From: a virus | DNA length: 64,000 bases | Virus record (IMG/VR): IMGVR_UViG_3300048930_000192 | Span: 32,001-96,000 of that record | Direction: 5' to 3' (one strand) | Part shown: one piece after another, positions 25,596 to 64,000 of the stretch | How the letters are laid out: every line of letters begins with the position of its first letter | How positions within the stretch are numbered: the first letter of the stretch is position 1 | The notes under the pieces: generated by a model | The model's database searches: none | Told to the model about the DNA's origin: nothing | What the model saw: the letters and a program-made list of their open reading frames with translations, nothing else | Program-made: the position numbers and the translations under genes

Positions 25596-25666
25596 ATTGT
25601 ATCGCTAAGGTAAACAGAAGTCAAGAAACAACGATTTTTGACTGTTATCGACCGACTGTATATAAT
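25596..25666. promoter_or_regulatory. Back-to-back sigma70 promoters
   Basis: - strand TTGACT-17-TACAAT (25624-25596); + strand TTGACT-17-TATAAT (25638-25666). Confidence 0.85.
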
Positions 25667-25674
25667 ACACTCAT

Positions 25675-26808
25675 ATGAGTAGAACAGCTAATAATAGAGC
25701 AACAGAAGTTACTGTGTATGGTGACGAGCCTTCATGGGAAGGCTGCGATTCTTGGGATGCAGAAAAAGTTTCAAAAACTTTCATGCTCGCCACTCAATGG
25801 TATAATTACATGAGCGATGAGAAAGACCATAAAAAATGGTTAATGGAATATTGCAAAGCTAACTGCAAAGAATCTGCGCCAAAGATATCAAAACTAGACA
25901 ATACAAGTATTAAATATGGTGAAATGGCTGGCGATGTCGGGTTTAATCCCGGTATCTACGCCAGGATTCTAAATCTTGGCGGAAAATTACCAGAGAAGTT
26001 GGTTGCAGATCTTAAAGCCGGAATATCTTATTTGTGTAATAAGTCTGATCGCATCTCAAATAAAGCCGCAGATCAGATTTCGGCAGAATCACCCAAACAA
26101 AAACCACCCAAAGAAATATCTGTAAGAGATCGGTCTATTCAAAAGGCCTTAGATGCAAACTTAGAAATAGAGAAGTTTTCCGACTATGTGCTAACAAGCA
26201 ACAAAGCCTTTACGTCAGAAACCATAAAAGATATATTTAAAGATAGAAGCATAAAACCTTCTCAAGCCGCCAATATAGTTGAGATATGGTCAGATAAAAA
26301 GAAAATCTTCGATCCAGAAGATTACTACACCTATGAAGAACAGGCCGTAAAAAGCTATCAGTCATTTATAGACTTGACTATTAAGGTTGCATCTGAGATA
26401 TCTTCTGTTAAGAAGATCATTATACATAAGCCTAGAAAAAAGTCACCAGTAGATCAAGTTAAGAAACTGAAATATAAGAAAGAAGATACTACATTAAAGG
26501 TCACTAGTATTTTACCGTCTAAAATAATAGGAAGTACAAAACTTGTACTTTTCAATACTAAATATTCTAAGATATCATATCTAGAAGCTGGTAATGCAGT
26601 GGGATTTACAGTTAAGGGCAATATAATAATGGGGTATGACGATACAAAGTCTTATACCAAGAAAGTTAGAGATCCTAAGAAAGTAATGGGAGAAATACAA
26701 AATAAGGGAATTAGAATAGTAAAATCTGTACTTGATGGGCTAAAGACTAAAAAGATGCCCATTTCATGCAGAATGTCAGAAGAGGTTTTAATAGTCGGAG
26801 TATACTAA
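25675..26808 (+). CDS. Hypothetical protein upstream of RNase H
   Basis: 377-aa ORF; QVKKLKY, IIGSTKLVLFNTK, GFTVKG resemble a conserved T4-like unknown family. Confidence 0.7.
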   Translation: MSRTANNRATEVTVYGDEPSWEGCDSWDAEKVSKTFMLATQWYNYMSDEKDHKKWLMEYCKANCKESAPKISKLDNTSIKYGEMAGDVGFNPGIYARILNLGGKLPEKLVADLKAGISYLCNKSDRISNKAADQISAESPKQKPPKEISVRDRSIQKALDANLEIEKFSDYVLTSNKAFTSETIKDIFKDRSIKPSQAANIVEIWSDKKKIFDPEDYYTYEEQAVKSYQSFIDLTIKVASEISSVKKIIIHKPRKKSPVDQVKKLKYKKEDTTLKVTSILPSKIIGSTKLVLFNTKYSKISYLEAGNAVGFTVKGNIIMGYDDTKSYTKKVRDPKKVMGEIQNKGIRIVKSVLDGLKTKKMPISCRMSEEVLIVGVY

Positions 26809-26809
26809 T

Positions 26810-27001
26810 ATGAAACTGATTGATTTAATCGAAATTCTAACAAAGTTAGAAAAAACAGACCTTAATAGATATGCTGATATTGTAGTCATGGTAAACGACG
26901 AAGTCGTTGACTTGGCTGATGCATCAATTGGGTACATCGATGATAATATAGGTGATAAAGTATTAGTATTATATACGGAGTCAAATAATGATACTCATTG
27001 A
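26810..27001 (+). CDS. Hypothetical protein
   Basis: 63-aa ORF in operon. Confidence 0.55.
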   Translation: MKLIDLIEILTKLEKTDLNRYADIVVMVNDEVVDLADASIGYIDDNIGDKVLVLYTESNNDTH

Positions 27002-27845: not shown

Positions 27846-27856
27846 ATGGAGATGGC

Positions 27857-28270: not shown

Positions 28271-28273
28271 TAT

Positions 28274-28474: not shown

Positions 28475-28721
28475 TCAAGAAATTGACAGTTTGTTTGGCG
28501 ACTATATCAAGAATCTATCACCAGAGTCGAATTCTACTATCGAGTTCGATCCAGACAACTTTGCAGATACAGAAGTAAACATGATTGGCCAGCAAGAAAT
28601 CAAATTTGAAAACGACCCATTTTATACTGACCTGAGAGATGGTACCACATATTCTAACATAAATAATCCCATTAGCCACCATGGCAGATGGGAAGATTTA
28701 GAAGATGATGCACACCGATGA
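28452..28721 (+). CDS. Hypothetical acidic protein
   Basis: ORF in operon; start uncertain. Confidence 0.45.
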   Translation: MNDQTSFNQEIDSLFGDYIKNLSPESNSTIEFDPDNFADTEVNMIGQQEIKFENDPFYTDLRDGTTYSNINNPISHHGRWEDLEDDAHR

Positions 28722-29430
28722 TTTGAATGTTTATCATGAAGATTGCCTAAAGTTTCTAGAATCAGAACCAGATAATAAGTATGACTTGATTTATGTAGAT
28801 CCACCATACAATACTGGTAAAAAACAAAAAGTTGGCGACAATTCGTATATTGACAAATACGAAGATTACCAATCGTTCATAACGCCTATACTAAAACAAA
28901 GCTGCCGGGTATTGAAAGATACCGGCAGCTTTTTCTGCCATCTAGACTGGCGAGAAGTTCATAAGACTAAGGTTATAATAGACTCGATCTATGGCGAAGA
29001 TAATTTTCAAAATGAAATTATCTGGCATAGCGAAATTGGCAATAGCCCTAAGCGAACATGGCCGCGTAAGCATACTAATATCTTATGGTATACCAAATCT
29101 AACACATATACATTCAATGAATCTAATGTGCCTATGGTAGATCGAAAGGCTCAAAAAGAAGGATATTCCGATCTTAAGCGAATGACAGACGTATGGACTT
29201 ACAATTTAAGCACTACAGATCCAGAAAGAGTTTCATATCCGAACCAAAAGCCATTGGCTATACTAGAACCGATCGTGTTGGTACACTCTAATCCAGGCGA
29301 TCAGTGTTTAGATTTCTTTGCTGGTAGCGGCAGCTTTGGTGAAGCTTGTATAAGAAACGGGCGAAAATGTAACCTGGTGGACAGAAATCCTCAAAGCATA
29401 GAAGTCATTAAGAAACGATTCAATATTTAA
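28705..29430 (+). CDS. Orphan N6-adenine/N4-cytosine DNA methyltransferase (beta class)
   Basis: YVDPPYN (motif IV) before YPNQKP and LDFFAGSGS (motif I). Confidence 0.92.
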   Translation: MMHTDDLNVYHEDCLKFLESEPDNKYDLIYVDPPYNTGKKQKVGDNSYIDKYEDYQSFITPILKQSCRVLKDTGSFFCHLDWREVHKTKVIIDSIYGEDNFQNEIIWHSEIGNSPKRTWPRKHTNILWYTKSNTYTFNESNVPMVDRKAQKEGYSDLKRMTDVWTYNLSTTDPERVSYPNQKPLAILEPIVLVHSNPGDQCLDFFAGSGSFGEACIRNGRKCNLVDRNPQSIEVIKKRFNI

Positions 29431-29435
29431 AAATA

Positions 29436-29470: not shown

Positions 29471-29482
29471 TGTTATTGAGAT

Positions 29483-30765: not shown

Positions 30766-30784
30766 CTATCTATTTATGAAAAAA

Positions 30785-33700
30785 TCAAGAACACTTGCTC
30801 CAACCACATGATTTGCAACTAACACAACCTTCTTCTCTAACCAAAGACTCGGATTTACACGAATCGCAAGATTGCCCGGTGACTTTTTCACCATTTGGAA
30901 TGTACTTTTTAAGTATTCTGCCAATAGATTTACCAAACGAATGCATATCACCGGGAGCCTTCTCGATTTGATCTACTATAAATTTGATATCAGAACCGTG
31001 TCTTAGGCTCAAACTTGTCATTCTTGCTATGACAACTTCTTCGTCTGTAAACTTAGAAGAAATGTTCTCTATAACTATACCATCATCTGTGTGAAGGTCG
31101 TAATGGCCTCTCTTAATCTTTACTAGCTTTCCTTGTTTGCTGGGTGTTATTTTACCCTTACCAGCAAATATCTCATATGGTGTATTCTGATATTTGCCGA
31201 CCACCACAAAGAATTCTTCACCACCGACCTTGGTTTCATAGATATCACAATCAAGAGACTTTGGTCTTTTTGGTGCAGTTGTCTTATTAAATGAATCTTT
31301 CTTTGATTCGTTCGAGCCACCAGATATTAATACACCGGCTCTGCATTTGTCTCTATAAACGGTGAACCCCTTGCACCCATGTTCCCACGCTTTCATGTAA
31401 ACTTCTGATATTGTGTCTTTGGTGCAAGACTCTGGCACATTACAAGTTTTAGAAATTGCATGACATATCCATTTTTGAGCAACAGCCTGAATTTCTACAC
31501 TTGCCAGCCAATCAATATCGTTGGAAGTAGATTGATAATATGGTGACACTTTGTAGAACTCCAAATCGTCAGCAGTTTTACAATTCTTGCTTTCGTCTAG
31601 TTTATATCCGTTGATATCCATCCAAGATTTAAATGCATGATGAAAAACTGGGTATTCTTGCCACTTGTCGCCCATGTCATCAACAAAATCTACTCTAGAA
31701 TTTACATCATTTGGATTAATCTTCTTTCTTCTCTTATAAAATATCAAATATGCCGGTTCTATACCAGAAGTAGTTTGAGTCATTGTAGAAACAGATCCCG
31801 TTGGTGCAGTTGTAGTATTAGCAATATTTCTGCGACCATACTTCATATAAAGTTCCAAAAGTTCTGGATCTGAATTTATTATTCTAGATATAAATGGATG
31901 ATCTTTTTCTAGGTTTCTGTCGAATACTGGAAAACAACCACGTTCTCCAGCCATTATACAAGAAGACTTATAAGAGTTTATGGCCAAAGTTTGATAAATC
32001 TTCTCTGTTATTTCAATAGAATCCTGAGAACCATATTTAATACCAAGCGCAGCAAGAGTATCACCAAGAGCTGTTATACCCAACCCAGTTCTTCTTCCAT
32101 TAACACAAGCAGTTCTAATATTTTCCCACAATCTCTTTTCATAAAATTTGATTGCGCCGTCTTCTGGATCAATTTCTATTTTATGCAGTATTTTGTCAAT
32201 TTGCTCTATTTCTAGGTCAATCATGTCGTCCATAAGTCGTTGTGATTGAATGATGACCTTTGAATAATTGTCATAGTCAAATTGAGCAGAACTTGTAAAT
32301 TTATTATTTACAAATCCCATAAGATTAATGCACATTAGCCGGCAAGAATCTGATGGAGACAATATAATTTCGCCGCAATTTTTTGAGTTGAACATACATC
32401 TTTCTTTTCTGCCATCAACAACTTGTTCGTTGCCGCCGATATAGAAATTGTGAAACTCATCAACTGTTCCATTATAAACATCTTGCTTTCCTGCATGAGC
32501 AACACTAATTACTTTATGATTATTGTAGGCTGCGTTTATTTTTAGATCGCCATAATCGTTGAATCCATATTTTGTGCCGAACCGACAGCTTAAATCATTC
32601 TTCTTGCATTCTAACTTATACTCTTTCAGCATTGGTTCTCTACCAATTATGTATTTGAAATCGCAATATAAATCCATCTGCGATTTCTTAATTGAATCCA
32701 TTTTTATTTTATAAGATTCATTAATAGAATGCGCTCGTTTTGCACAAGATTCTGGGTTTGAATTATTTATTTTGTTTGCACAAGTTATACCACAGCAAGA
32801 AACTTCGCGGTGCCCGTGGGCCACTTCAAATTTATCACCACAGCATTCGCAGACTTTTTCTACAAATACTCTAGAATCTTTGATAGAGCACTTATATCCC
32901 TGAGATTGCATTTTTTGCAATAATTTTGTTGTTCTTGGATCTATTTCGATCAGTTCGGCAGAAATACCGCAAACTTGGGCGCATTTCTTAGAAAATTCTA
33001 AAACATCGCCAAATTCATTGTATCTATAATCTGCAAATGCTAATGGCAAATCATTATTTTTTGCATATTCTTGCCATTCTTTTATGGAAAATCTTCTACC
33101 GATCGAAAGAGTCAATTCTATTCCTTTAGCCTTTAACTCTGTATTAGATATATCCTTTGCATTACCATTTTTCAAACCAGTATTAAGTTCAGATTGCAAT
33201 TTTCTATATTGAGCAGATCTTTCTGGATCAGCCAATATTTTGTGTATTGGATTATTGGCGCCCATCATTTTTTCTTTGTGGTGCTCGTTGTGGTCGGTAA
33301 TTAGCATCTTTTCTAGATTTTCAATTTTATTGTTCTTAGAATTATGATCTTTGTGATGTACTATATAACCTTTGCCAACGTCACCAAAATGATGGTTGTA
33401 GATATACCGATGCTCAGTTTTTTTGAAAGCATTGTTGCAATTTTTTAGCATCCAGTACATAGTACGCACATTTCTGGATTTGACATTAGGGATATCTACT
33501 ATCGATCCTTCATATCTAAATCCAACATGCAAACTATCGCCTGGGACAATGTCTTTTACCTCTTTAAAAGATCCATCTCGCATCATCATTCTATGATTAC
33601 TTGTGGTTTTAAATTTCGACCCGTCATCTAATATAACTTCATATACATCTTGATTATATCCGGTTATTCTAGGATTTCGCATTGTTCTAACAGCAATTCT

Positions 33701-34687
33701 TCCTCTGTCATCGCAGCAATAAACGGGAATGTCCAATCCTTCTTCTGCTAATTTAGATATTTCTACAAATCCTCTACCATCTGCAACAGATATTAATGTA
33801 TCTCCAGTAATACAAGGATTTGTAGAAGTACTTTCATATCCAAAATCCTTATAGATATCAGACGGCGTCAATCTCTGCGCGGTATCCCAAAATAGTAAAC
33901 CTGGTTCAGCAGAGGCCCACGCAGCCTCGATTATCTCATTCCACAAAGATTCTGCATCTACAGACTCTTTTATAGATGGATTAGAAGAATCAACCGGCCA
34001 TCTCAATTCTACTTTTTGCTTATTCTTTACTGCATTCATGAATTCGTCTGTTAAACGAATTGATATATTAGCACCAGTTACCTTCTTTAAATCCTTCTTG
34101 ATATTGATAAATGTTCTAATTTCTGGGTGGTGGCAAGATATAGTAAGCATTAGTGCCCCGCGCCGCCCACCCTGAGCCACTTCTCGGCAGGTATTGGAAA
34201 ATCTTTCCATGAAAACGCCAATGCCATCTGTAGTTCTTGCTGCGTTCTTTGTTTTAGAACCCTTTGGTCTTATGTTGCTTATGTCAAATCCGACACCACC
34301 GCGGCGCTTCATGATTTGAGCCTGTTCTTGATCAGTTTTCAATATGCCTGAATACGAATCTTTTGGCGAATCTATGACAAAACAATTGGAAACACTTTGA
34401 ATTTGATAATCGTTGCCAATTGCACTCATTGGCGATCCCTGTGGAATAACAAATTCAAAGTTCTTAAAAAGATTATATATTTCTTCTTCTGTTAGTGGAT
34501 TAGGATAATTAGCTTCTATTCTGGCAAATTCTTTTGCCAATCGTCTGTGCATTTGATCTGGAATTGATTCTAATATATTACCATCTTCATCTCTAAGCGC
34601 ATATTTTCCAACAAATATACCAGCAGCCAATTCATCACCATTAAAATACGAAATTGAATCCTTCATTGCTTCTTCGTAGCTAAACAT
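30785..34687 (-). CDS. nrdJ: Class II (B12-dependent) ribonucleotide reductase with intein
   Basis: SNCFV, RRGGVGFDIS, QGGRRGALM, EPG, TNP[intein]CGE, RRTGLG, APTG, GIEP, KGFTVYRD, C-terminal Zn ribbon; no nrdB adjacent. Confidence 0.92.
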   Translation of the reverse strand: MFSYEEAMKDSISYFNGDELAAGIFVGKYALRDEDGNILESIPDQMHRRLAKEFARIEANYPNPLTEEEIYNLFKNFEFVIPQGSPMSAIGNDYQIQSVSNCFVIDSPKDSYSGILKTDQEQAQIMKRRGGVGFDISNIRPKGSKTKNAARTTDGIGVFMERFSNTCREVAQGGRRGALMLTISCHHPEIRTFINIKKDLKKVTGANISIRLTDEFMNAVKNKQKVELRWPVDSSNPSIKESVDAESLWNEIIEAAWASAEPGLLFWDTAQRLTPSDIYKDFGYESTSTNPCITGDTLISVADGRGFVEISKLAEEGLDIPVYCCDDRGRIAVRTMRNPRITGYNQDVYEVILDDGSKFKTTSNHRMMMRDGSFKEVKDIVPGDSLHVGFRYEGSIVDIPNVKSRNVRTMYWMLKNCNNAFKKTEHRYIYNHHFGDVGKGYIVHHKDHNSKNNKIENLEKMLITDHNEHHKEKMMGANNPIHKILADPERSAQYRKLQSELNTGLKNGNAKDISNTELKAKGIELTLSIGRRFSIKEWQEYAKNNDLPLAFADYRYNEFGDVLEFSKKCAQVCGISAELIEIDPRTTKLLQKMQSQGYKCSIKDSRVFVEKVCECCGDKFEVAHGHREVSCCGITCANKINNSNPESCAKRAHSINESYKIKMDSIKKSQMDLYCDFKYIIGREPMLKEYKLECKKNDLSCRFGTKYGFNDYGDLKINAAYNNHKVISVAHAGKQDVYNGTVDEFHNFYIGGNEQVVDGRKERCMFNSKNCGEIILSPSDSCRLMCINLMGFVNNKFTSSAQFDYDNYSKVIIQSQRLMDDMIDLEIEQIDKILHKIEIDPEDGAIKFYEKRLWENIRTACVNGRRTGLGITALGDTLAALGIKYGSQDSIEITEKIYQTLAINSYKSSCIMAGERGCFPVFDRNLEKDHPFISRIINSDPELLELYMKYGRRNIANTTTAPTGSVSTMTQTTSGIEPAYLIFYKRRKKINPNDVNSRVDFVDDMGDKWQEYPVFHHAFKSWMDINGYKLDESKNCKTADDLEFYKVSPYYQSTSNDIDWLASVEIQAVAQKWICHAISKTCNVPESCTKDTISEVYMKAWEHGCKGFTVYRDKCRAGVLISGGSNESKKDSFNKTTAPKRPKSLDCDIYETKVGGEEFFVVVGKYQNTPYEIFAGKGKITPSKQGKLVKIKRGHYDLHTDDGIVIENISSKFTDEEVVIARMTSLSLRHGSDIKFIVDQIEKAPGDMHSFGKSIGRILKKYIPNGEKVTGQSCDSCKSESLVREEGCVSCKSCGWSKCS
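32378..33814 (-). mobile_element. Intein (479 aa) with HNH homing endonuclease
   Basis: Starts CITGDT, block B TTSNH, HNH HHKDHNSKNNKIENL, block F VYNGTVDEFHNF, ends SKN before extein Cys. Confidence 0.9.
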
Positions 34688-39665: not shown

Positions 39666-39666
39666 A

Positions 39667-43500: not shown

Positions 43501-43576
43501 AATATCTCCAAAATATTAAAAATCACTGTTTAAAATGTCTGATACAACGTCTATTATATCAGACATACGACGTATT

Positions 43577-43720
43577 TTAGCTGTTCGGAGAGAACTTGTC
43601 AACAACCTTACTTTCGGCATCTCTTACTTTAGCAAGAGTATTCTTATTATTCTTGCTAAACCAAACAGTAAGACCAAAACTAACGACTGCGCCAACTAAA
43701 AGACCTGCAATAAAAAGCAT
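43577..43720 (-). CDS. Small single-pass membrane protein
   Basis: AGGAG RBS then MLFIAGLLVGAVVSFGLTVWF. Confidence 0.6.
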   Translation of the reverse strand: MLFIAGLLVGAVVSFGLTVWFSKNNKNTLAKVRDAESKVVDKFSPNS

Positions 43721-49407: not shown

Positions 49408-49436
49408 ATTATACACGATTGGTATGATATGATCAA
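49408..49436 (-). promoter_or_regulatory. sigma70 promoter
   Basis: TTGATC-17-TATAAT. Confidence 0.7.
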
Positions 49437-49507
49437 AAATCTGAGTTTCGGTGCGTAAGATAATAGTCGCCTATAGTAGATCTATAGTGATTACCGTGAC
49501 CACCGTT

Positions 49508-49720
49508 ATTTTAACTCTGGATAGTGAAAAATTGTGGCGGCCAAAAGAACGGTAACAGTACCACCACCGTACCACCACCACCGTACCACCACCACCGTAC
49601 CACCACCACCGTACCACCACCACCATTTTGACTCTGGATAGTCACCATTTTAACTCTGGATAGTGAAAAATTGTGGCGGCCAAAATATCGTATTTAATCT
49701 TCAACGACCCCCACCACCCC
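49508..49720. repeat. Repeat block: 39-bp direct repeats (49508-49546, 49647-49685) flanking (GTACCACCACCACC)x4 plus a partial copy
   Basis: Read directly; sits at the strand and composition switch. Confidence 0.9.
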
Positions 49721-49796
49721 TCTTTATATAGTGTCTTTTCGTATCTGAGATACTACAGTTAGTGTGTACTAACAGTCGATTTTTTCACTCCAGTGC

Positions 49797-49824
49797 TTGA
49801 CTCTACGCGCGACGCGCATACACT
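49797..49824 (+). promoter_or_regulatory. sigma70-like promoter of the CC/GG-free gene
   Basis: TTGACT-16-TACACT, preceded by TCTGAGATA and GTTAGT..ACTAAC motifs shared with downstream cassettes. Confidence 0.65.
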
Positions 49825-49894
49825 CTATGTGTCTACTACGTGTCGCGCAACTTCGTGAGACACGAAAACAATAGTAGACTTGTGAGAATCTGAC

Positions 49895-50559
49895 ATGACT
49901 TCTACGCTTCAGATCGTTGCATCGTCGCACGTCGTTCGTTTTCGTGATCAAGAGCAGCGACTGTTTTCGTACAGTCTGCACGATTCGTCTGTCAGTCTCA
50001 CGCGCAACGCGCTTGCGTCGTACGCGCTCGATCGTGAAGACTCTCTCGCGCACGTGCATACGATCGATCGCGACGAATTCGAGCGCGCAAATACGCGCGT
50101 GATTCGTGACAGTGTGTACGAAAACTACGCGCAGAATCGTCACTCGATCGAGCGCGTACGACGCAAACGTTCGCGCGTGCGACGATCGATTCGTGCTTCA
50201 CTACGTTCTCGACTGTCGCGCGCTTCACTGTCAACGTCGATAACGTCAAGCGCGACAAGTGTGTGCGAATCGTGCGAAAAGTTGAATTCGACGAAGCGTA
50301 CAATGCAAGCGCAGAGCACGATTTGCAGATCGCGCAAGATTGCAGACTGCAATCGATCGAGATCATGCAAATGATCGAAGATGTGCAGAAATTGCGCGCA
50401 AAGATCGCATCGTGCATCACTCTCTTTCACAAAATGAAAGAGAGCGCAGACAAAGAGACGCGCGACAAAGCGTTTGCTGCTCTCAACGCTGCGAAAAAGC
50501 GCAAGATTCTGCTCGCAGAGATGCTCGAATCGTTGAATTGCGCAGATCTTTTCGACTAA
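49895..50559 (+). CDS. CC/GG-free early gene (~221 aa, no Gly/Pro/Trp), split by a 1-nt frameshift near 50120
   Basis: Frame of 49895 reads MTSTLQIV..DSVYE; the -1 frame continues KLRAESSLDRARTTQTFARATIDSCF..LNCADLFD* to 50559; flanked by promoter and terminator. Confidence 0.7.
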
Positions 50560-50579
50560 GATCGAAAACAGAACAAAAC

Positions 50580-50609
50580 ACGAACGAAGCGCTAACGTGC
50601 TTCGTTCGT
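50580..50609 (+). terminator. Terminator hairpin built without CC/GG
   Basis: ACGAACGAAGC-gctaacgt-GCTTCGTTCGT followed by CTTTC. Confidence 0.7.
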
Positions 50610-50843
50610 CTTTCTCACAAAGCGCCGATTGCCAGTGCTTGTTGCGCTGGCTTTCGTCGTTTTTCGGTCGGATCATAACATCGCGTTCGCCATTGTATGC
50701 ATGGTGGTATCAAAAGTCAAGTAAAAAATAAAATAATATTATACGGTGGTGGCGGACGCGAGGTTAGTAACGGCTAACTAACAACCATCTGGGATACCGT
50801 ATGTTAGTGAATACTAATGTGTGTCAAAATCAAGTCTACGTGC

Positions 50844-50872
50844 TTGACATTCGCACGTTTACGCGCTATACT
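50844..50872 (+). promoter_or_regulatory. Early sigma70 promoter
   Basis: TTGACA-17-TATACT. Confidence 0.88.
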
Positions 50873-50951
50873 TATGTGTCACACGAGAGAATATTAGACG
50901 TGAGTGTTTCACGAAAAGTAAACTCTCAAAACAAGTTTGGAGTATCTGACA

Positions 50952-51533
50952 ATGACGACCGCCAATGCTCTGCCGTTTGCCCCCGTCACCCCCGGGGCGC
51001 CCAAGACCGCCAAGCCCGCTGCCCCGAGTGGCGTGACCTACGGGGACAAGATCAATGCTGCCTTCGCGCTTGAGATTGCCCGCACCGTGGGCTTCGACCC
51101 GTTCGACGTCGCCGCTCGCCCGACCTACTTCACCCGCCCGCAGATGTTCCGCATCGCGCTCGAAAACGGGGCCAAGTGGTTTCTCGACTACTACCGCAAG
51201 CAAAAGAGTGGCAAGGGCCTGGGCAAGCTGATCGCGCAGACGGGGCAAGACTGGTACACCCCCGAATTGTTCAGCGACCCCAAGTTCTACTCCCGCTTTG
51301 GCGTCAAGCTGGGCAAGCCGAATCATGTGAGCAACAAGCACACCAAGAATGGCGTCTGCGTCGACCCGACCCGCCCGTGCCTGCCCAACGGGACCAAATG
51401 CTACGACGCCGTCGTGCTCTGGGAATCGCTTGACCGCGTGCGTGAAAAGATGGGCGAAGTTCACTACCTCGCCATGTGCGACCGCAAGCCGTTCGATGCC
51501 GCGACCGACGAAGAAACCGAAGATTCCGAGTAA
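50952..51533 (+). CDS. GC-rich early protein, paralog of 52967-53644
   Basis: GGAG RBS; shared RP.Y.TRPQM, SRFG..GKP.HVS, VDP..P.LP.GTK.YD...LW.SLDRV. Confidence 0.85.
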   Translation: MTTANALPFAPVTPGAPKTAKPAAPSGVTYGDKINAAFALEIARTVGFDPFDVAARPTYFTRPQMFRIALENGAKWFLDYYRKQKSGKGLGKLIAQTGQDWYTPELFSDPKFYSRFGVKLGKPNHVSNKHTKNGVCVDPTRPCLPNGTKCYDAVVLWESLDRVREKMGEVHYLAMCDRKPFDAATDEETEDSE

Positions 51534-51563
51534 ACCCATCGTCACGACAATCTGAGATAGACC

Positions 51564-51591
51564 CAAGGGGCTGGATCAATCCAGCCCCTTG
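51564..51591 (+). terminator. Terminator hairpin
   Basis: CAAGGGGCTGGAT-ca-ATCCAGCCCCTTG then TTT. Confidence 0.8.
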
Positions 51592-51752
51592 TTTCGGTAC
51601 ATTATCCCAAACATCGCGTCCGGCATTATAGGGGTGTGGTATGATGGTGTCAAGTGCATTAGTGAAAATTAATGTTACCGTATGGCGGACACGAGGTTAG
51701 TAAGTACTTACTAACAGATATCTGAGATAATAAAATAAAATGCACTATACAC

Positions 51753-51781
51753 TTGACATCGACTAGGTAACATGCTATACT
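51753..51781 (+). promoter_or_regulatory. Early sigma70 promoter
   Basis: TTGACA-17-TATACT. Confidence 0.88.
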
Positions 51782-51820
51782 TATGTGTCGAGTGGATCAT
51801 CTATCACAAAGGGGCTCAAA

Positions 51821-52634
51821 ATGAGCAATTGCATCCAGCCGCGTGGCAATTTCTGTCAGGGTGTCATCTTGGATCCTTCCATGTTCACTGGGCTCCTTGC
51901 CGTCGAAGATGCCGAGGGCAACAAAATCTTCCGATCCACTCGTGATGGCTGGGTCCTCAAGATGGGCAGAATAACCACATGGCGTGGGTTTCGTTGCTTT
52001 CTCTGGAACCATGTGCAACCGTTCGTCAATCAGCCGCGCGTCAAGATCCCAACCCTGATCGCCGACGAGGCTGATGAGTTTGCCGAGGCATTCACTGCCA
52101 CCGTGCACCTATTTCCACCTGGGACCAAGAGCGCAGACGTGGCTGATTGGACCAAGATTTTCCCCTGACCAGACCAAATGGAGATATGACCATGACCGAT
52201 AACCTCAAGACCGTCACCCGGAACCTTCTGATGTCTGCCCTCATGTGTGATGAGGGTGTGACCAAAGAAGTGTTCGACCGCCTTCTGGAACTCGCCGAAG
52301 AGGTGTTTGGCACGCCGGGTGCTCATGTGCTCGCGATGTACGTGGATGCCACCGATGATTGTTTCTATGTCGCGGAACACAAGGTGTCTGCCTTCATGAT
52401 CGACGTGGCTAATCTGATCTGATCACCAGACCCAATGGAGATATGACCATGACCAAGATCATTGTGACCGTGACCGACAACGAGAACCCAGAGTGTGAGC
52501 CTGCTACCTATGAGGCGCTCGTGGAAACCGGACTTTCTCCTGAAACCCAGGAAATGATCGTTCGTGGGATCCTTTTCGCCCATTCCTGGGCAGATTCTGC
52601 TGGCATCGACTATACCTGGTCCTACGACGGATAA
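51821..52634 (+). CDS. Three small early genes (51821-52168, 52186-52422, 52443-52634)
   Basis: Good RBSs, GC-rich third positions. Confidence 0.7.
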
Positions 52635-52650
52635 CCCGACCTTTCAAATG

Positions 52651-52699
52651 CGCCGATAGAACCGTGAATGGTGTGTTGCCATTCACGGTTCTATCGGCG
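52651..52699 (+). terminator. Long terminator hairpin (~21-bp stem)
   Basis: CGCCGATAGAACCGTGAATGG...CCATTCACGGTTCTATCGGCG then TGTTTTT. Confidence 0.85.
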
Positions 52700-52863
52700 T
52701 GTTTTTAGGCTCATCCGTAAACCTCGTGTCCGGCATTATAGTATATAGGTAGTGTAAAGTCAAGTATGGTATGTAAAATTGATGTTACCATGATGGCGGA
52801 CGCGATGTTAGTACTTACTAACTAACCTGTATCTGAGATAATCACAAAAAGAGCGATATACAC

Positions 52864-52892
52864 TTGACGTCTTCTAGCCTACGCGCTATCAT
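52864..52892 (+). promoter_or_regulatory. Early sigma70 promoter
   Basis: TTGACG-17-TATCAT. Confidence 0.8.
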
Positions 52893-52966
52893 TCACTGTC
52901 AACTGCAACTGTCGCGCGTCGCGTCGATCGCAAGTTGAAAATTACCCACGAAAGGGGTAAAGTATC

Positions 52967-53644
52967 ATGACCGAGAATAACAACGCCGTTGCCACCACTC
53001 CTGCCACCGCCGCCAAGAAGGGCCGCAAGCCCAAGAATGCCGCTGCCTTGCCTGATGTGCCGCCTGCCCCTGTCGCGCCTGGCGCCGCGACGCCCGAGAC
53101 CCCGATCAGCAAGCCCGCCAACGTGTCGCGTCGTGACCGTACCAATGCGGGATTCGTGCTCGACCTGTGCATGATCACTGGCACTGACCCGACCGACATC
53201 GCCAATCGCCCGCAGTATATGACCCGCCCGCAGATGGAAGCCGTTGCCATCTCGAATCGTGAGCCGTGGTACGTGAATATGTGGAACAAGCAGAAGACCA
53301 CCAAGCACCGCGACAAGACCATCGCCAAGACGCATGCCAACTGGTTCGACGAAGCCATGCTCGTCGATGGCAAGAAGTTCAGCCGATTCGGGATCGTGTG
53401 TGGCAAGCCGGGCCACGTGAGTTATGCCACTGTTCATGCCGGGGTGATGGTCGACCCCAAGGGCCCGACCCTGCCCGACGGGACCAAGCAGTACGACATC
53501 ACCCAACTCTGGGATTCTCTCGACCGAGTGATCGCTGCCTACCCCGCGGGGACCTATGCCGAACTGAGCCAGCGCAAGCCCGTTGTCGCTGATGACTCGA
53601 CCGATGAGTCTGACACCGAGACCAACGACGAGACCGCCGACTAA
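52967..53644 (+). CDS. GC-rich early protein, paralog of 50952-51533
   Basis: Shared motifs, Ala/Pro/Lys N-tail, acidic C-tail. Confidence 0.85.
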   Translation: MTENNNAVATTPATAAKKGRKPKNAAALPDVPPAPVAPGAATPETPISKPANVSRRDRTNAGFVLDLCMITGTDPTDIANRPQYMTRPQMEAVAISNREPWYVNMWNKQKTTKHRDKTIAKTHANWFDEAMLVDGKKFSRFGIVCGKPGHVSYATVHAGVMVDPKGPTLPDGTKQYDITQLWDSLDRVIAAYPAGTYAELSQRKPVVADDSTDESDTETNDETAD

Positions 53645-53674
53645 ACCCGACAACCCGACATCCTGAATCACCAC

Positions 53675-53700
53675 GAGGGGCTGGATCGATCCAGCCCCTC
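53675..53700 (+). terminator. Terminator (perfect 26-bp palindrome)
   Basis: GAGGGGCTGGATCGATCCAGCCCCTC then TTT; near-identical to 51564. Confidence 0.8.
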
Positions 53701-53841
53701 TTTCGGGTACATATACTAACCTCGTGTCCGGCATTATAGTATATAGGTAGTGTAAAGTCAAGTATGGTATGTAAAATTGATGTTACCATGATGGCGGACA
53801 CGAGGTCTATGGTTACCGATAAAATAATCGTGTGTGTAGAC

Positions 53842-53870
53842 TTGACATCATGTTGCCATAACGCTAGAAT
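53842..53870 (+). promoter_or_regulatory. Early sigma70 promoter
   Basis: TTGACA-17-TAGAAT. Confidence 0.85.
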
Positions 53871-53912
53871 AACTGTCGCGCATTGTCTCTCACATACACT
53901 GGAGATCGCCGC

Positions 53913-54401
53913 ATGGGCTACCGTGATCCTCGCCGTTTCGTGATTGCCGTCACCAACGTCAATGGCCGCAAGGACTACTATGCGGGTAGCCGTGATGGCC
54001 AACCCACATGGTCGAATGACCTGATCGACGCCTTCCAGTTTCGTGGCGAAACGGAACTGGATGCTGCAATCCTGCTCGCCAAGAAGCTTGGTGCCAGGGT
54101 CTATCAGCGTGGCGTGATGGTCGAGTGTTGGTAAGCAATTTCATCCATCTCACGCAACCACTCAAGGAGTATCATCATGGCTACCGTAAAGTCGGACCTG
54201 ACCGCCGCCCGTAGGTACCTGATCGAGGCCTATAAGGCTATCAAAGATGCCAGAACCCACTGTGATGGTGTCGTGGATGTTGAAGGCATCCACTACCATG
54301 ATATCACCAAAATCATGGACCAAGTCGATACCGTCGCTCGGATTTGCAAGGTCGAGCTGGATCGTCTGGATAAGGGTATTTTGACGTCCAAGGAATCCTG
54401 A
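53913..54401 (+). CDS. Two small early genes (53913-54134, 54177-54401)
   Basis: GGAG RBS before each ATG. Confidence 0.7.
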
Positions 54402-54441
54402 TATTTTCCGCTGTTTTCCGTAATTGTCGTCAAAAATCACG

Positions 54442-54531
54442 AAAAAACTGCATTTGGACAGCCAGGATGCAGTTTATTTTGATGGATTTACGCTCCAAAA
54501 AAACTGCATTTGGACAGCCAGGATGCAGTTT
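54442..54531. repeat. Two 34-bp palindromic direct repeats with a 22-nt spacer
   Basis: AAAAAACTGCATTTGGACAGCCAGGATGCAGTTT at 54442 and 54498. Confidence 0.85.
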
Positions 54532-54792
54532 TTCACGAAAACACGTGTTTTTTGCATTTACCCCTGCTCCGCTACAGGCCAGCCCTTACCAAACATCAAA
54601 AAACTCGCGTCCTTTTGGAAATACGTGGCAATAGGTCTATAATTTTACCTCGTGTTCGGCATGTTATGTGTATGGTGTATGATAGTCAAGTATGGTCTAA
54701 AATATTAATGTTACCAATTGATGTATAATGGTAGCGCCAATGGTGGCGAACACGAGGTATGCCATTGGTATAATATATTCGTGTGCGTACAC

Positions 54793-54821
54793 TTGACTAT
54801 GATATGCCAATCGTCTAAAAT
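54793..54821 (+). promoter_or_regulatory. Early sigma70 promoter
   Basis: TTGACT-17-TAAAAT. Confidence 0.85.
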
Positions 54822-54863
54822 AACTGTCGCGCATTCTCTCACACGATCATTGGAGTATCCACA

Positions 54864-57534: not shown

Positions 57535-57658
57535 TTTTATTCGGCATCAAATTTCTTTAACGACAGTCTTGACAGTGATTTGCCATACGTCTACAATCAC
57601 ATGAGTGGGGCGATTCTTGTATGATTCTCACTCACCCCCCCTTATGGAGTACCTTGAA

Positions 57659-57980: not shown

Positions 57981-58699
57981 ATGACGGCGAATTGGGATAA
58001 GCTGTGGGCGGCTGTGGCCGTCGCGTCGTTCATGGCGATGTGGGCACTGCCCTTGATGCTAGTGTTGTTAGCATGGGCGCTGCGCATGGAGTCGATTCGC
58101 GACCAGGATCGAGATTCGCTGGTCCGCGAATCGAACGGTCTATTGCGCGGAGCAGCATATGCGCTCATGGCCCTGTTGGTACTGATAGTGTTGCACATAC
58201 TTTATGGAAACTAGATATAGCCTGCCGCACTAATATTTTAACGTTATAGCTTGACAGTGAGTTGCCGTACGTCTACAATTGATTGGCGTTCGATGCACAA
58301 ATGAATTTTCCGCCTCTCACTCACAAAGGAATCAGCACCATGACCATCACCACTCACAATGATCTGATCGCACGGCTCAAGGCCAACTACCCCGACGAAT
58401 CGTTGGACGGTGAGTTTCTTGCGCCGGGTGTTGCTTTGGCCAACAAGCTCATTAGCTGCCATACTGTGGCCGACAACTACGAATCTTCGACCACGATCTT
58501 TGCCTTTAATCCCGAAACCACTGATGCAGAGATTCGTGACATTGCCAAGATGTGCCACTTTGATCCAGATGGATCCAGTTGCAGGTGCAGTCACGATTGC
58601 TGTGGCCACTGGTTTCATGGCGCCATCCGAATCGTTGATAACACCAGTCACCCTGCGTTTTTTCGGTTCGCCTATATCTATGGGCACAGAAATGTCTAA
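57981..58699 (+). CDS. Two small genes (57981-58214 membrane protein; 58340-58699 Cys-rich CRCSHDCCG)
   Basis: AGGAG/AGGA RBSs. Confidence 0.6.
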
Positions 58700-59151: not shown

Positions 59152-61461
59152 GAACAGGCAACAGCCAATGTTTGTTGCCAGTAACAAATCACCAACACCG
59201 TATCGTCTGATTGATATTAGTCAGGCTCAGGCAATGGCCGGCGATACGCCGTTGCCATTGCCCGGTTGCCGAACGGCGATCAATGTTCGCAAAACTAGAA
59301 CCAGAGGCTGGCTTTATCATTTACCTTCAACCGGTACTTTCTTGTTTACCACATCAAACGAACACCGTATGATTCATGGTACTACTCAAATTATCACAAA
59401 GGCACAAACGCCAAACAAATTGCCACGAGAAGAAGCTCGGTTGCCTGCATATGTTGGCGGCCATTATCGGCCGCGATGGGATGCCGACCGCGAGGTTTGA
59501 CGGTGCATTACATTTTGACGATATCACTTGACGATGACTTACCATACGTCTACAATTGATTGGCTCTCGTTGTCTTTTCAAGAAAGGTTGATACAAGCCA
59601 TGAAGATCGTCAAGACGCATAATGCCAAGATGGGTATGGTATATCAACTGATTGCCATGGACCACAAGATTCCTAGTGCATGTGTATGGTCAACCAATGA
59701 TGGGCAACGAGTTGCCCTTTGTCTGATGCGCAAGGATCGGCATGGTGAAATGGCAATTTCTCGCATGATGAGTTGGCGAGAAAAGATGAGTTGGATCATG
59801 TTGGTGTGTTACGACATTGAGAACGTGGCCAAGGCGTTGGATATTAAGCCGATTAAGGTTTGATAGCCAACCATCTGAATTTTCCTCAAAAGAAAGGTAT
59901 CATCACAATGATTAGGCAATACAAGGTTTCTAGCAATGCCCCGGGCTTCGTTGAAAAGTATCTGTGGTCTAGTTTCTACGTGGCCGAATTGGTCAAGACC
60001 ATCCCAGATGGCTATACGGTCGATATCGAATACGAAGATCGGCCGATCTTGTCGGGCATCATCGGCCAGATGACGTTGCCGACGATCGCAACCTTGTATC
60101 GAGCCGTTGCAGTTGATCCGACTGTGTTGCCTGTGGTGACAGACGATGAGCCGTGCCAGATCAGCGGCAACGAAGGTGCAGTTCAGGGATAATTGCTTGT
60201 AGGCACATGTGGAACCCTAAAATGGATACTAGATGGGTCAGCCGAACCTTCATTAACTACACCAGTTTCGGTGCCTCAATTACTATGATTTTTTATGATG
60301 GGCATATATCTTCTGGTAGTGTATCGCTTCGCCAAGGCGGGCAATATTATACCAATAATAAGAACTTTTCACCAACAGGAGTAGAATCATGAAGTATTTT
60401 GAACGGGATAGTAAATTCAATTTCGTGGACGCAAACAACGTCTTTGTAGGCTATGACTCACATCAGGATTGCTGTGAGTTGGCTAGCTGGTATTTTTCTT
60501 TCAACCCGGGTGTAATTCCAGTTAGTGATTCAGACCATATTAGTGTTGACGAACTGGATGCATATTCGTTTGACACCGGTTATTTCCGTAAAGAGTTTGA
60601 AGATGAAACTGCAATTGCGGAATTCAAGTTGGTCGCCGCAGGTCTTCCGGATATCTATTTGATTCTTCATAACACCCATAATGGTTATTATGGGCATGGC
60701 TTTAAGTGTGAAATTTCTGGCGAAGTTCTGCGTTCGGGCATTCTGTGATATGGGTGAGTGCCGAGCACGAGGTTGATGTTATAGGCAAGTGATATTTTAA
60801 TGATATCACTTGACAGTGATTTGCCGTACGTCTACAATTAATCGACTGGTCTCACACGCATACTTTATATGGAGTATCACCAGATGCCAATTCGCCTGTC
60901 AACTCCAACCGAATACACTCTTGACATGGGTCGGTCTGATGGGAAGTTTGCTCTCAGGGCAGACAGATGGGAGTTCGCCTTCAACTACAACGGCGAAACC
61001 ATGGCTGTTCAGGTCTTGCATGATGGCATTGAGACCAGATTCAAGATGTTTCACTGGGATCTTGGCGATCGGTTTGAAGTCATCACCAAAGAAATGTTGG
61101 ACCAACGGATCCAAGACGCCATTGACCATGGCGACACTTACGATGGCAAGACGATTGAGGTCGCTGAAACTGCTGGGTATGACGCCATCATGGCAGATGT
61201 TCGCGCGCGATGGACTGCCATTTCATATATCGTTAACCCCAGGTACGCCTATTAATTTGGGAGAGGTGTATGATCCCGGCGAGAGAAATTGGTTACTCCT
61301 GCATGACTTACTATATTGCGGGTAGATGGATCATGACTTTGTATTATTCCGGTGATTTTACGAGGAATGAAATCACACACACAAGTTTTTACAGGTTATT
61401 TGAAAGCGGGGAGTATTGCTACAAAAGTAAATTATTTGACTCAACTGGTGTGGGTAGATAG
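59141..61461 (+). CDS. Small early genes (59141-59500, 59600-59863, 59908-60192, 60207-60392, 60389-60748, 60869-61255, 61270-61461)
   Basis: Co-oriented ORFs behind sigma70 promoters; 60389 has HQDCCE..HNGYYG, a common phage unknown family. Confidence 0.6.
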
Positions 61462-61546
61462 AGGCTGATTAAATTTTGCATATCGACTTGACAGTGATGT
61501 GCCGAAGTTCTATAATTTTGTACGCACTCTCTGGAGATCAAAGACG

Positions 61547-61906
61547 ATGATTAAGATCCTTTTCCTTGACGACGAAGCAGCCAGGTTTGACGTTTTGGTA
61601 AAGAATCTTGGTGATAGTGCCCAATGCCGTCATGTGAAGGACGGGTTTGAATTTCTTGAGGCTCTGTGTGATTCCAAATATGATGTTATCATGTTGGATC
61701 ATGATCTTGGCCTCTGCGATTTCACTGGTGTGGATGCAGCAAAGATTCTTGCCTGCGCACCAGAGAATCTGAATGATCACCAACTGGTAGTTGTTCATAG
61801 CATGAATGTTTGCGGCGCCGACAACATGATTTCACACATGAGGAACTCGCCGCATCTTAGGATTCGCAAGATGCCTGGTGCATGGATGAAGAATTTTCTT
61901 GGATAG
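61547..61906 (+). CDS. Stand-alone receiver-like protein (cyclic-phosphate-processing REC family)
   Basis: ILFLDD..R, IMLDHDLG, TG.D, VVHSMN..GA..M. Confidence 0.8.
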   Translation: MIKILFLDDEAARFDVLVKNLGDSAQCRHVKDGFEFLEALCDSKYDVIMLDHDLGLCDFTGVDAAKILACAPENLNDHQLVVVHSMNVCGADNMISHMRNSPHLRIRKMPGAWMKNFLG

Positions 61907-61919
61907 AAAGAGGTAAATA

Positions 61920-64000
61920 ATGTCAAACGATGAAAACGTCCCAACTGCAAGCCCAAGTCGAGAAGAAACAATCACCAATCTTGTCGAGGAGATGACAGGT
62001 GAAATGCTGCAAATCAGTAGGAAACTGGAACCCCTATACACTACAAGGGATGCCTTGTATGATCAAACCGACATCAATTTGATGGACGAATATATCTGTA
62101 GCCTAGAAGACCAAATTAGGCTTGTTCGTGACATTACCGTTAGGAAGATTTGCGCAATTGTTTGAAAGATACCTTAAACAATGGCTGGTTATTGATAGTG
62201 GTACTATTGTTTTCTATGATGGTGCCATTGTATTGTTAAATCTACATATGTATAGCCCAAGAGGCAGAATTCATGGTGGTAACGGTAGTAAATGGTATGA
62301 CGAAACCGGAATAGAGTATGGTACCTAAGAGGTCGGTTCATCTTCAATGGATTTGTTATGAAGAACCAGATGGCCGTTGGTTCTCAGACATATGGTACCT
62401 TGGAGTAATTGTTTTTTGTGTGCCAGCACGTGGTTTTGAAAGTGATGGTAGCTATGACCTTACCACTGCTGAATATGACGATACTGGGCTACTGATAACA
62501 TGACTGACAGGATAATAGGATCATCATACATTTATTACATAGAGCCGGGTGCCAGGCGGCCTGCTAGTGGGGTTATGGGATACAATGGCACCATAACATA
62601 TAGTAATCTTACTTTTTGGAATACAGGTCAATATAATTTTGGCCGCGACGTATTTTCGCCAACAGGAATAGAATTGTGAGTACCCGCATATTATATTATT
62701 TCATTTGGTGCGACGGCCAAAGTCTATGGTACACAGGCAATATAGACCGGGGTGATGACACCCATCATGAAAGCGGTAGTTACGATTTGGGGTTCAGACA
62801 TTTTGACCGAACAGGATTAATATTATGAGAACGAGGGAGATTCAACTGGATTGCATGAGAATCATACTCGGTGAATATTTCACATACTATATTATATGGT
62901 ATGATGGCGATGTAGATTTCGGCACTTATGGGCTTGCTCATCGGGGCGTTAGTTTAAATTTAAGCCCAGTTGGAGCATATACCATTGAACACTTCGTAGA
63001 TCAATCTAGGCTATGTGTTAATGCCGATGGGTCTTAATATTTTGGCAATAATAATTTTGATATATCGACTTGACTGCGACTGTCCAGATGTCTATAATTT
63101 ATGACAAGGAGATCTGCGATATGGATAAGTCATACCACGAAGTTCACGATGATGCCGATTGTATCGATGATCTGCCAGAGCTGACGGCAGAAGAAGCCAA
63201 TATCATCGAACGGCAAATCGATGGCCTCTATGAAGGTCCTGTGTTCCAACGGAAACTTGAGGCCTATTATGAAAGAGTCGGAAATCAGGATAGTTGACTA
63301 CCGCAAAATTGCCAAGCCACACATCAACATACTATATGGCGGTGATATCATTCATCGGTCAAGAGTATTCCTACATGCATCCGGCGAGTATACCACATTC
63401 GACTCATCGGCTGCGGTCACATCAGATGGAAGTGAATTAGAATGGCCAAAGAAACCGTTATAGAATACTACTGTATTGTCTTTGGCGGCCCGGGTAATAA
63501 TACATGTGTTGCATTTTATCACGGTGAGGCCAGGTGTCTATGGGGCTACTGGTTATGGGACACCGGGGCATATTATGTCAATTACAACAAAAATCGGACG
63601 CCAGTGGTATTTTACGATGAAACGGGGTTACAACAATATGAATAGGTCAATATTTGCTACCAATATAATTTTGTGGCATCCAAACGGATATCGAGATGTT
63701 AGATATAATGGCAGTGTCACCAACCAGAAATTCTGGCTGTGGGAAAATGGTTCATACTATGTTTACCGTCACCCGAATGACACACCCTGCTTTACTGTGT
63801 TTGATGCAACAGGAGTCTATATATGAATAATCCCGGAAACAAGCCTGTGCGCGTAGTTTGCCCGCGAGAAATCGTTAGGTATTATGATGGCGCTCGCGAC
63901 ATCATAAGCTATATTGGTACCATTAATACAACTGGCAATTTTCTGCTTTATAGTATCGGATCATATAATCTCTACGACCGACCCAACCCCAAAATTATGG
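61920..64000 (+). CDS. Chain of microprotein genes (61920, 62122, 62318, 62500, 62676, 62825, 63121, 63269, 63442, 63638, 63823-partial)
   Basis: Mostly overlapping stop/start junctions; most share a Y.G/G.Y/D.TG motif. Confidence 0.7.

Follow-up and report, generated by a model that had tools for sequence, protein, structure and literature searches.

A CC dinucleotide at a fixed spacer position marks the main promoter class of an uncultured T4-like wastewater phage

Introduction

The middle of the spacer between the -35 and -10 hexamers of bacterial promoters is usually treated as sequence-neutral. The closest described systems that act at this place are a spacer element and a cofactor. The spacer is sensed around -21 by the β' zipper of RNA polymerase (RNAP), and the Z-element is a stretch of 5 bp that ends 4 bp upstream of the -10 hexamer (PMC3173786). 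The cofactor GcrA rides on sigma70-RNAP, reads a word at about -20, and stimulates open-complex formation, and the sites of its regulon are "narrowly centered around -20" (PMC4647560). Here we describe a phage in which two bases in the middle of the spacer, CC at -21/-20, occur in one orientation and are conserved like the -35 and -10 hexamers. The DNA analyzed, referred to as the window, is the 64,000-nucleotide stretch from base 32001 to base 96000 of the 131,810-bp linear metagenomic virus record IMGVR_UViG_3300048930_000192, and the coordinates given below are window positions. The completeness of the record according to CheckV is 72%, and the absence of a protein family from it is weak evidence. 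The phage is T4-like, uncultured, and belongs to a wastewater lineage.

CC in the promoter spacers

The original prediction, which was made from the sequence of the window, listed 20 promoters and placed CC at spacer positions 9-10 (-21/-20) in 16 of them. All 16, ten on the plus strand and six on the minus strand, carry CC at this position. The pattern TTGAC-N18-TAnnnT occurs 45 times in the whole record, and 32 of the sites have CC at spacer positions 9-10. Ten of the 13 sites without it fall within long open reading frames (ORFs) and look like chance matches; the remaining three, 50720(-), 50844(+), and 51753(+), are intergenic. If the pattern is tightened to TTGAC-N18-TANAAT, CC is present in 29 of the 30 sites of the whole record (binomial P about 4e-40, with the genomic CC frequency of 0.039 per position as the null). 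A looser consensus scan, accepting at least 10 of 12 hexamer matches, returned 69 sites, 31 of which have CC. GG was found at spacer positions 9-10 in none of the 45 sites; the CC element thus has a single orientation. The spacer is 17 bp long in all members of the CC class, and no CC-class site with a spacer of 16 or 18 bp and a good -10 hexamer was found in the record. Most CC sites are intergenic and positioned ahead of genes, with consensus -35 and -10 hexamers and 17-bp spacers. The class fronts small early ORFs, the transfer RNA (tRNA) and NAD-salvage regions, and the replication block, and it includes five leftward "cassette" promoters. CC therefore marks the main promoter class of the phage, the default of almost all its strong promoters and not a subset of them.

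A promoter logo of the whole genome, proposed as a check together with the original prediction, was calculated from 34 sites; one of 35 was dropped because it is located in an ORF and has TATCTT as the -10 hexamer. CC is present in 34/34 sites, and the pattern reaches beyond the range in which it had been noted. One or two weak members of the logo, such as that at genome position 26004, may be chance matches. The -35 hexamer starts with TTGAC in 31/34 sites and with TTGAT in 3/34. In the -10 hexamer, positions -11 and -8 are A and position -7 is T in 34/34. The bases next to CC are also conserved: T at -23 in 27/34 sites, R at -22 in 32/34, and R at -19 in 30/34 (never C). They form the core word T-R-C-C-R at -23 to -19, which is always in one orientation. 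Further conservation outside the canonical elements is found at -36 (C in 29/34), -13 (C or A in 31/34), and -60 (G in 21/34), and several columns of the spacer are near-random, with 0.1-0.3 bits. The full consensus consists of an A/T-rich UP-like tract at -57 to -47, AC-TTGACW, N6, TRCCR, N4-5, C at -13, and TAnAAT.

By sequence, these are promoters of the sigma70/sigmaA type, which is defined by a -35 hexamer near TTGACA, a spacer of 17 +/- 1 bp, and a TAnnnT -10 hexamer. They do not have an extended -10 element, which is TG at -15/-14; the phage consensus reads GTC from -15 to -13, and TG was flagged in only 1 of the 20 listed promoters. The consensus of the UP element is an A/T-rich tract from about -59 to -38. 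A similar A/T-rich tract is located upstream of the phage promoters at -58 to -47, with A at -55 in 26/34, A at -51 in 24/34, and T at -47 in 22/34 sites of the logo.

Two other readings of the word were considered and rejected. The complement of the CC word is similar to the -24 box (TGGCA) of the sigma54 consensus, but the -12 GC is absent from the phage consensus. TTGCCA could be taken for a second -35 hexamer, but no conserved -10 hexamer is located 17 bp downstream of it.

The flanks of the promoters are poor in CC/GG, as had been predicted. Around the 34 promoters, 9 CC/GG are found from about -55 to -26, compared to about 36 expected, and 25 from about -15 to +15, compared to about 65 expected. 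Part of this depletion is ordinary, because the UP-like tract upstream is A/T-rich and the leaders contain no CC/GG until the GGAG of the ribosome site. The two stretches singled out by the original prediction have the described composition: in 25530-25719 (given as 25530-25720) the only CC/GG are the two in the spacers, and 50799-50938 has none, being part of the CC/GG-free run 50798-50939. GGYA, the reverse complement of TRCC, occurs at -61 in 11/34 promoters.

The region 25596-25680 contains two back-to-back promoters with start codons 7 and 9 nt past the -10 hexamers, and both mRNAs are thus predicted to be leaderless. A start codon close behind the -10 hexamer is also found at many promoters of distant relatives.

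Selection on the CC and its distribution among phages

Many of the promoters are paralogs, among them the gtgatttgCCrtacgtc group and the cassette copies, which are almost identical, and copy number alone proves little. Nevertheless, the sequence comparisons indicate that selection acts on the CC, which does not simply result from the duplication of promoters. It is retained in spacers that are otherwise unrelated (25624, 25638, 51653, and 52864), it is present in the sites of relatives, and it is unchanged in orthologous promoters. In a 47-kb fragment of a relative, 19/19 TTGAC-N18-TANAAT sites have CC, and all 19 have RCCR. In two other relatives, CC is present in 2/2 and 1/2 sites, respectively, and the site without it is in an ORF. 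Eleven orthologous promoter pairs were picked by the identity of their flanks, and CC in the relative was no criterion. In these pairs the CC is changed at 0/22 positions, in comparison with 38/165 of the other spacer positions (Fisher P 0.009), 2/132 positions of the hexamers, and 22% of the flanks.

The promoter at 25638-25666 can be compared with positions 7012-7040 of the relative contig L118. Their flanks are 92% identical, yet 6/15 of the non-CC spacer positions differ, and the CC is kept. The spacer of this promoter appears to turn over faster than its surroundings.

A distant set was formed of 78 loci of T4-like relatives with a marker protein at most 34% identical. CC is present at spacer positions 9-10 in 0/67 unique strict sites of this set, and the spacers are A/T-rich or of the TG type. 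As judged from these comparisons, the CC element is restricted to one narrow phage lineage.

CC in the same register was also found in a second group of phages, represented by contigs of 45-105 kb rated 12-31% complete. The motif ATT(G/C)CC(A/C) is present in 12/23, 13/25, and 4/5 of their strict sites, as counted by eye, and TTGACA promoters without CC are present as well. Only one detectable protein is shared with the phage studied here in about 110 kb compared, and the group is an unrelated one of probably very large phages. Its IMG/VR contigs (L103, L104, L079, L115, and L345-L348, which are behind G005-G008) have a promoter class of the form GG-TTGACY-aWWAATT(G/C)CC(A/C)ATTyTGC-TATAAT, with CC in the same spacer positions.

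A pattern scan of bacterial genomes gave no clue to the host: among the matches listed nearly all were single, one contig had two, and most were from metagenome-assembled genomes of Clostridia. In 301 genomes of the phylum of G010 (0.4-2.1 Mb; probably not proteobacterial), at most five pattern matches per genome were found.

Two promoter classes

According to the original prediction, CC defines a second temporal class of promoters, and the promoters without it fire first. The existence of two classes is upheld by the sequence, the CC-less one having its own -10 hexamer and the downstream motif TATGTGTC. The role given to CC is not, because it is the default of almost all strong promoters. The CC class is the general one, and the CC-less class, called class II here, is small and separate. 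The four exceptions among the 20 promoters are as first described: CC is at spacer positions 8-9 in 50720(-), GG is at 8-9 in 51753, and 49797 and 50844 have neither. Class II consists of the three rightward promoters 49797, 50844, and 51753, which have a TA(T/C)ACT -10 hexamer followed by TATGTGTC. Their -10 hexamer has C at -8, where A is present in 34/34 sites of the main class. Class II promoters head the rightward early region, next to the place, at about 49.4-49.8 kb, where the genes change orientation. The promoters of the window are listed below.

25596-25624, minus strand: CC class, TTGACT-17-TACAAT; ATG 7 nt past the -10; the L118 ortholog keeps CC and differs in other spacer bases
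25638-25666, plus strand: CC class, TTGACT-17-TATAAT; ATG 9 nt past the -10; back to back with 25596-25624
43574-43602, minus strand: CC class, TTGACA-17-TAAAAT; absent from the list of the original prediction; 74 nt upstream of a minus-strand gene; kept in relative G003
49408-49436, minus strand: CC class, TTGATC-17-TATAAT; head of the leftward block of replication genes
49797-49824, plus strand: class II, TTGACT-16-TACACT, then cTATGTGTC; predicted to drive the CC/GG-free unit
50692-50720, minus strand: cassette promoter, TTGACT-17-TACAAT; CC at spacer positions 8-9, a shift of one base
50844-50872, plus strand: class II, TTGACA-17-TATACT, then TATGTGTC; within the second-longest CC/GG-free run
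51625-51653, minus strand: CC-class cassette promoter, TTGACA-17-TATAAT
51753-51781, plus strand: class II, TTGACA-17-TATACT, then TATGTGTC; GG at spacer positions 8-9
52735-52763, minus strand: CC-class cassette promoter
52864-52892, plus strand: CC class, TTGACG-17-TATCAT
53733-53761, minus strand: CC-class cassette promoter; 98% copy of the 52720-52808 module
53842-53870, plus strand: CC class, TTGACA-17-TAGAAT
54661-54689, minus strand: CC-class cassette promoter, TTGACT-17-TAACAT
54793-54821, plus strand: CC class, TTGACT-17-TAAAAT
57569-57597, plus strand: CC class, TTGACA-17-TACAAT
58251-58279, plus strand: CC class, TTGACA-17-TACAAT
59528-59556, plus strand: CC class, TTGACG-17-TACAAT
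60810-60838, plus strand: CC class, TTGACA-17-TACAAT
61488-61516, plus strand: CC class, TTGACA-17-TATAAT
63070-63098, plus strand: CC class, TTGACT-17-TATAAT

The cassette promoters belong to five repeated intergenic modules at 50676-54825. Each module has a leftward consensus promoter between inverted arms (ACCTCGTGTCCGGC and GGCGGACACGAGGT), followed by a rightward promoter. In contigs of relatives the modules are joined in other combinations, with skips from 50699 to 51683, from 50796 to 52854, and from 51716 to 52829, as expected for cassette shuffling.

The CC/GG-free first rightward unit

The run 49791-50625 is 834 bp long, has a GC content of 51%, and contains no CC/GG on either strand, although about 100 would be expected. 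The next-longest CC/GG-free run of the record (141 bp; 50798-50939) covers the promoter 50844 and its leader. The longest such run in 2.85 Mb of other fetched loci measures 269 bp and has a GC content of 26%. The 834-bp run corresponds to one predicted transcription unit formed of the promoter 49797, a leader, a gene, and a terminator hairpin at 50580-50609. All other genes of the phage have normal CC/GG content. The gene of the unit is as follows.

49895-50559, plus strand: gene of the CC/GG-free unit; interrupted by a frame break, with 49895-50155 in one frame and 50158-50559 in another

The gene is real. In contigs of relatives, one extra base behind 50155 restores a single ORF. Within the frame 50158-50559, 10 of the 13 substitutions of relatives are at third codon positions, and 8 of the 11 changed codons are synonymous. 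The sole homolog of the protein among 1.84 billion representatives has 212 aa and covers both parts, with identities of 48% and 59%. The comparison supports a single frame break in the gene of this record. A 25-bp inverted repeat (50010-50034 / 50145-50169) is located inside the gene, and the frameshift is in its right arm, in which relatives differ from the record at five positions. This arrangement suggests that the frameshift is a template-switch mutation or an assembly fault.

Among relatives, 35 substitutions are listed within the 834-bp run, restricted to the best-supported differences, and none creates CC/GG in its haplotype. The sole candidate for creating one, at 50158, is accompanied by a paired change of the neighboring base that prevents it. 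The neutral expectation is that 24-28% of substitutions would create CC/GG (P about 6e-5), and the exclusion of CC/GG from the unit is thus maintained by selection. General avoidance of restriction sites was rejected as an explanation, because GATC, TCGA, CGCG, and GCGC are abundant in the unit, and mutational erosion of CC was rejected because the unit is rich in GC and CpG.

The product of the 221-codon gene contains no Pro or Gly; its 212-aa homolog also lacks both residues and has a single Trp. The two parts of the protein had no Pfam or PHROG match except a sub-threshold one of the C-terminal part to DUF4487. Searches found no Atlas match and no relatives in IMG/VR or Joint Genome Institute (JGI) metagenome contigs. 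The AlphaFold model of the protein has a mean predicted local distance difference test (pLDDT) score of 51. The protein was considered as an acidic DNA mimic, a reading that was rejected because its isoelectric point is 5.7-7.6. The CC/GG-free unit matches no system known to us, with no literature search aimed at such units. The divergent intergenic region immediately upstream of the unit is occupied by four 14-bp-spaced copies of the repeat ACCACCACCGTACC (49504-49690; the last copy is 86% alike), flanked by 44-bp direct repeats.

The phage record and its setting

The record encodes a split DNA polymerase of the T4 type, portal, sheath, large terminase, and baseplate proteins, PhoH, NAD-salvage enzymes, and a ribonucleotide reductase with an HNH insertion. 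The HNH endonuclease-like segment (residues about 405-640) splits the gene of the large reductase subunit in frame at 30785-34687. The nearest cultured phages, which are cyanophages and the Pelagibacter phage Mosig, have DNA polymerase and portal identities of only 45-47%. Two parts of the window were compared with phage records by megablast, which gave no match. The proteins of the phage occur only in metagenome contigs, and the sequencing runs that contain parts of the window are mostly labeled as wastewater or sludge metagenomes. A search of the window against Rfam had no match. The T4 late motif TATAAATA occurs only 7 times in the record and provides no map of promoter classes.

The gene at 28705-29430 encodes a stand-alone DNA methyltransferase of the N6_N4 family with a DPPY motif, which we take to be typical of adenine methyltransferases. 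Among proteins of solved structure, RsrI and CcrM match it best, and the enzyme is accordingly predicted to be of the adenine type and unrelated to CC. A pair of paralogous GC-rich genes without a family match is located at 50952-51533 and 52967-53644, with a local GC content of 60-68%, whereas that of the genome is about 38%.

Discussion

The near-invariant CC of the strong promoters, together with the CC/GG-free first rightward unit, indicates that something in the phage-host system probably reads the dinucleotide. The position, invariance, orientation, selection, and one-lineage restriction of CC are observed; the positive effect and the nature of the reader are inferred. Our tentative preference, to which we give slightly less than even confidence, is that the host transcription machinery reads CC at the spacer position of the Z-element and of GcrA, with a positive effect. 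CC would be the invariant core of a third promoter element, TRCCR at -23 to -19, fixed in position and orientation. It might be read either directly, by the shape of the junction between an A/T tract and GCC, or through a cofactor bound to the host RNAP, and would thereby give the phage very strong early promoters adapted to one host. As judged by helical phasing from the -35 hexamer, the major groove at -22/-21 would be turned towards RNAP. More generally, the sequence of the mid-spacer could have its effect by way of RNAP at an earlier stage, of the shape of the DNA, or of a bound cofactor. A host-side reader is favored because the promoters are otherwise ideal host promoters and because the element tracks a narrow phage lineage, as adaptation to a host would. 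The distant T4-like relatives without CC fit adaptation to a particular host.

Several observations weigh against a host-side reader. In the solved open complex of Thermus, the DNA between -29 and -18 is free of protein contacts, and the zipper reaches the phosphate at -17 (PMC4593229). Direct reading of -21/-20 by RNAP alone is thus without structural support. The same structure agrees with the premise of the original prediction that sigma70 makes little base-specific contact with the mid-spacer, and an additional reader is conceivable. The modest effects of the Z-element, which are 2- to 5-fold, sit badly with 100% invariance, and the T7A1 Z-element is A-rich, with its CC two bases further downstream (PMC3173786). 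In one genome of Anaerolineales that was examined, CC is present in 11/163 sites (6.7%), about as often as by chance. The CC/GG-free first unit is left without a reason if the host machinery is the reader. The second phage group provides weak independent support for a host-side reader: it was retrieved with a pattern containing the motif, and its whole spacer is conserved, so that CC is not singled out.

CC might instead be the docking site of an RNAP-associated factor encoded by the phage, following the logic of GcrA, in line with the phage factor of the original prediction. The CC class would then be switched on after the CC-less promoters, the products of which, such as the protein made from the CC/GG-free unit, would supply the factor. 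The contact-free surface from -29 to -18 (PMC4593229) and the precedent of a cofactor that reads a word at about -20 (PMC4647560) are consistent with such a factor, as is the finding that CC is absolute and confined to one narrow lineage. Exactly three CC-less promoters, with their own -10 variant and downstream box, head the rightward early region, and the first of them is predicted to drive the unit from which CC/GG is excluded by ongoing selection, which suggests that the dinucleotide has a meaning beyond promoters. However, promoters with consensus -35 and -10 hexamers, spacing, and a UP-like tract should be strong with the host RNAP alone. Homologs of Sigma70_r2 and AsiA were not found in the 72%-complete record, no phage-encoded reader of CC was identified in it, and the protein of the first unit has no family, fold, or Atlas match and is frameshifted in this record. 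A phage-encoded factor is the main rival explanation, to which we give a confidence well below even. It is also possible, although unlikely, that bare CC/GG is recognized in double-stranded DNA. A dedicated RNAP-bound reader, made by the phage or delivered by the virion, would license almost every phage promoter through a CC at -21/-20, where the spacer faces RNAP, and the first unit would be kept free of CC/GG to work outside the system. The unit could then encode the reader, or it could be the one gene whose expression has to precede the arrival of the reader or of a CC-directed activity.

The CC could also belong to an operator: a repressor of the phage or of the host would occupy the spacer and shut the early class off later in infection. 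Operators of lambda and many other phages overlap the path of RNAP, as the position of CC does, the word is short and orientation-specific, and GGYA recurs at -61. Nevertheless, a typical dimeric repressor needs more than a 5-bp word that lacks a consistent partner half-site, the partner at -61 is present in only a third of the sites, and no candidate repressor was found, which makes an operator improbable. Modification of the DNA at CC (GG on the other strand), or its use as a target or a protospacer-adjacent motif (PAM)-like word of a defence system, would account for the total exclusion of CC/GG from both strands of one unit. This exclusion suggests a constraint acting on double-stranded DNA and is far from the 269-bp run at 26% GC found elsewhere. 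The original prediction had allowed for a modified CC mark, but no cytosine- or guanine-modifying enzyme was found: C5 DNA_methylase, TGT/DpdA, and Thymidylat_synt (which includes dCMP hydroxymethylase) had no match in the 72%-complete record, which is weak evidence, and its only DNA methyltransferase is predicted to be of the adenine type. Moreover, the CC/GG content of all other phage genes is normal, and promoters would avoid a defence target instead of fixing it. A modification or defence site is therefore very doubtful. Finally, CC might have no function and be inherited from a single ancestral promoter cassette that spread by duplication, as the clear paralogy of many promoters could suggest. 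This is barely credible, because spacer positions have drifted to 0.1-0.3 bits with CC still in 34/34 sites, spacers unrelated elsewhere retain it, and the orthologs have no changes of CC among 22, compared to 38 among 165.

Whether the host transcription machinery, as we prefer, or a phage protein reads the CC, the dozens of promoters with diverged spacers represent a natural mutagenesis series. If the reader were identified, whether as RNAP, as a cofactor of the host, or as a protein of the phage, the architecture of bacterial promoters would gain a defined element. The identification would also provide a signature by which early promoters of this uncultured wastewater lineage could be called and its host possibly predicted.

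Comparison with known promoter systems

The promoter-early stem-loop (PeSL) cassettes of T4-type phages, reportedly described by Arbiol et al. in 2010, are said to be repeated modules of a promoter and a hairpin between small early genes. They reportedly have neither a fixed spacer dinucleotide nor an internal antisense promoter. The modules of the phage are similarly repeated and are joined differently in contigs of relatives.

The Z-element is, like the CC, a sequence-dependent element of the mid-spacer, at spacer positions 9-13, that works together with the -35 and -10 hexamers, and CC is likewise found in AACCT, its version in T7A1 (Yuzenkova et al. 2011, PMC3173786). The CC of the phage promoters, at spacer positions 9-10 with R at 11, is within this window. 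However, it is not at 11-12, as in T7A1, and the word is TRCCR and not A-rich: the phage consensus is CC-R-w-w preceded by T-R, which differs from AACCT, AACAT, and AATGT. In addition, dozens of phage promoters keep the CC without exception, whereas the part of the paper considered here reports a 2- to 5-fold effect and defines no consensus.

The GcrA/CcrM-dependent sigma70 promoters of Caulobacter likewise have a short word at about -20, but this word is methylated GANTC (YGAKTCK; Haakonsen et al. 2015, PMC4647560), which neither the phage consensus nor the aligned spacers contain. The middle promoters of T4, which depend on MotA and AsiA, resemble the phage promoters in that a phage-specific, TGC-containing word upstream of a sigma70 -10 hexamer defines a temporal class. 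They differ in that the MotA box, an element at -30, replaces the -35 hexamer and is 11-13 bp from the -10 hexamer (PMC1524935), whereas the phage has a consensus -35 hexamer and a word 7 bp from the -10, and AsiA was not found in the 72%-complete record.

An invariant mid-spacer CC did not turn up in the parts of the full-text literature on T4-like early promoters and spacers that were covered. The early promoters of T4-type phages are a sigma70-like class with lineage-specific extra positions and an A-rich region that resembles an UP element. Like the phage promoters, they are located ahead of numerous novel small ORFs and of tRNA genes (Nolan et al. 2006, PMC1524935). Their extra positions are at -33, -36, -40 to -44, and beside the -10 hexamer, and the portion of that paper considered here mentions no mid-spacer dinucleotide. 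With their own consensus, the promoters of the phage fit the habit of T4-type phages to have lineage-specific early promoters.

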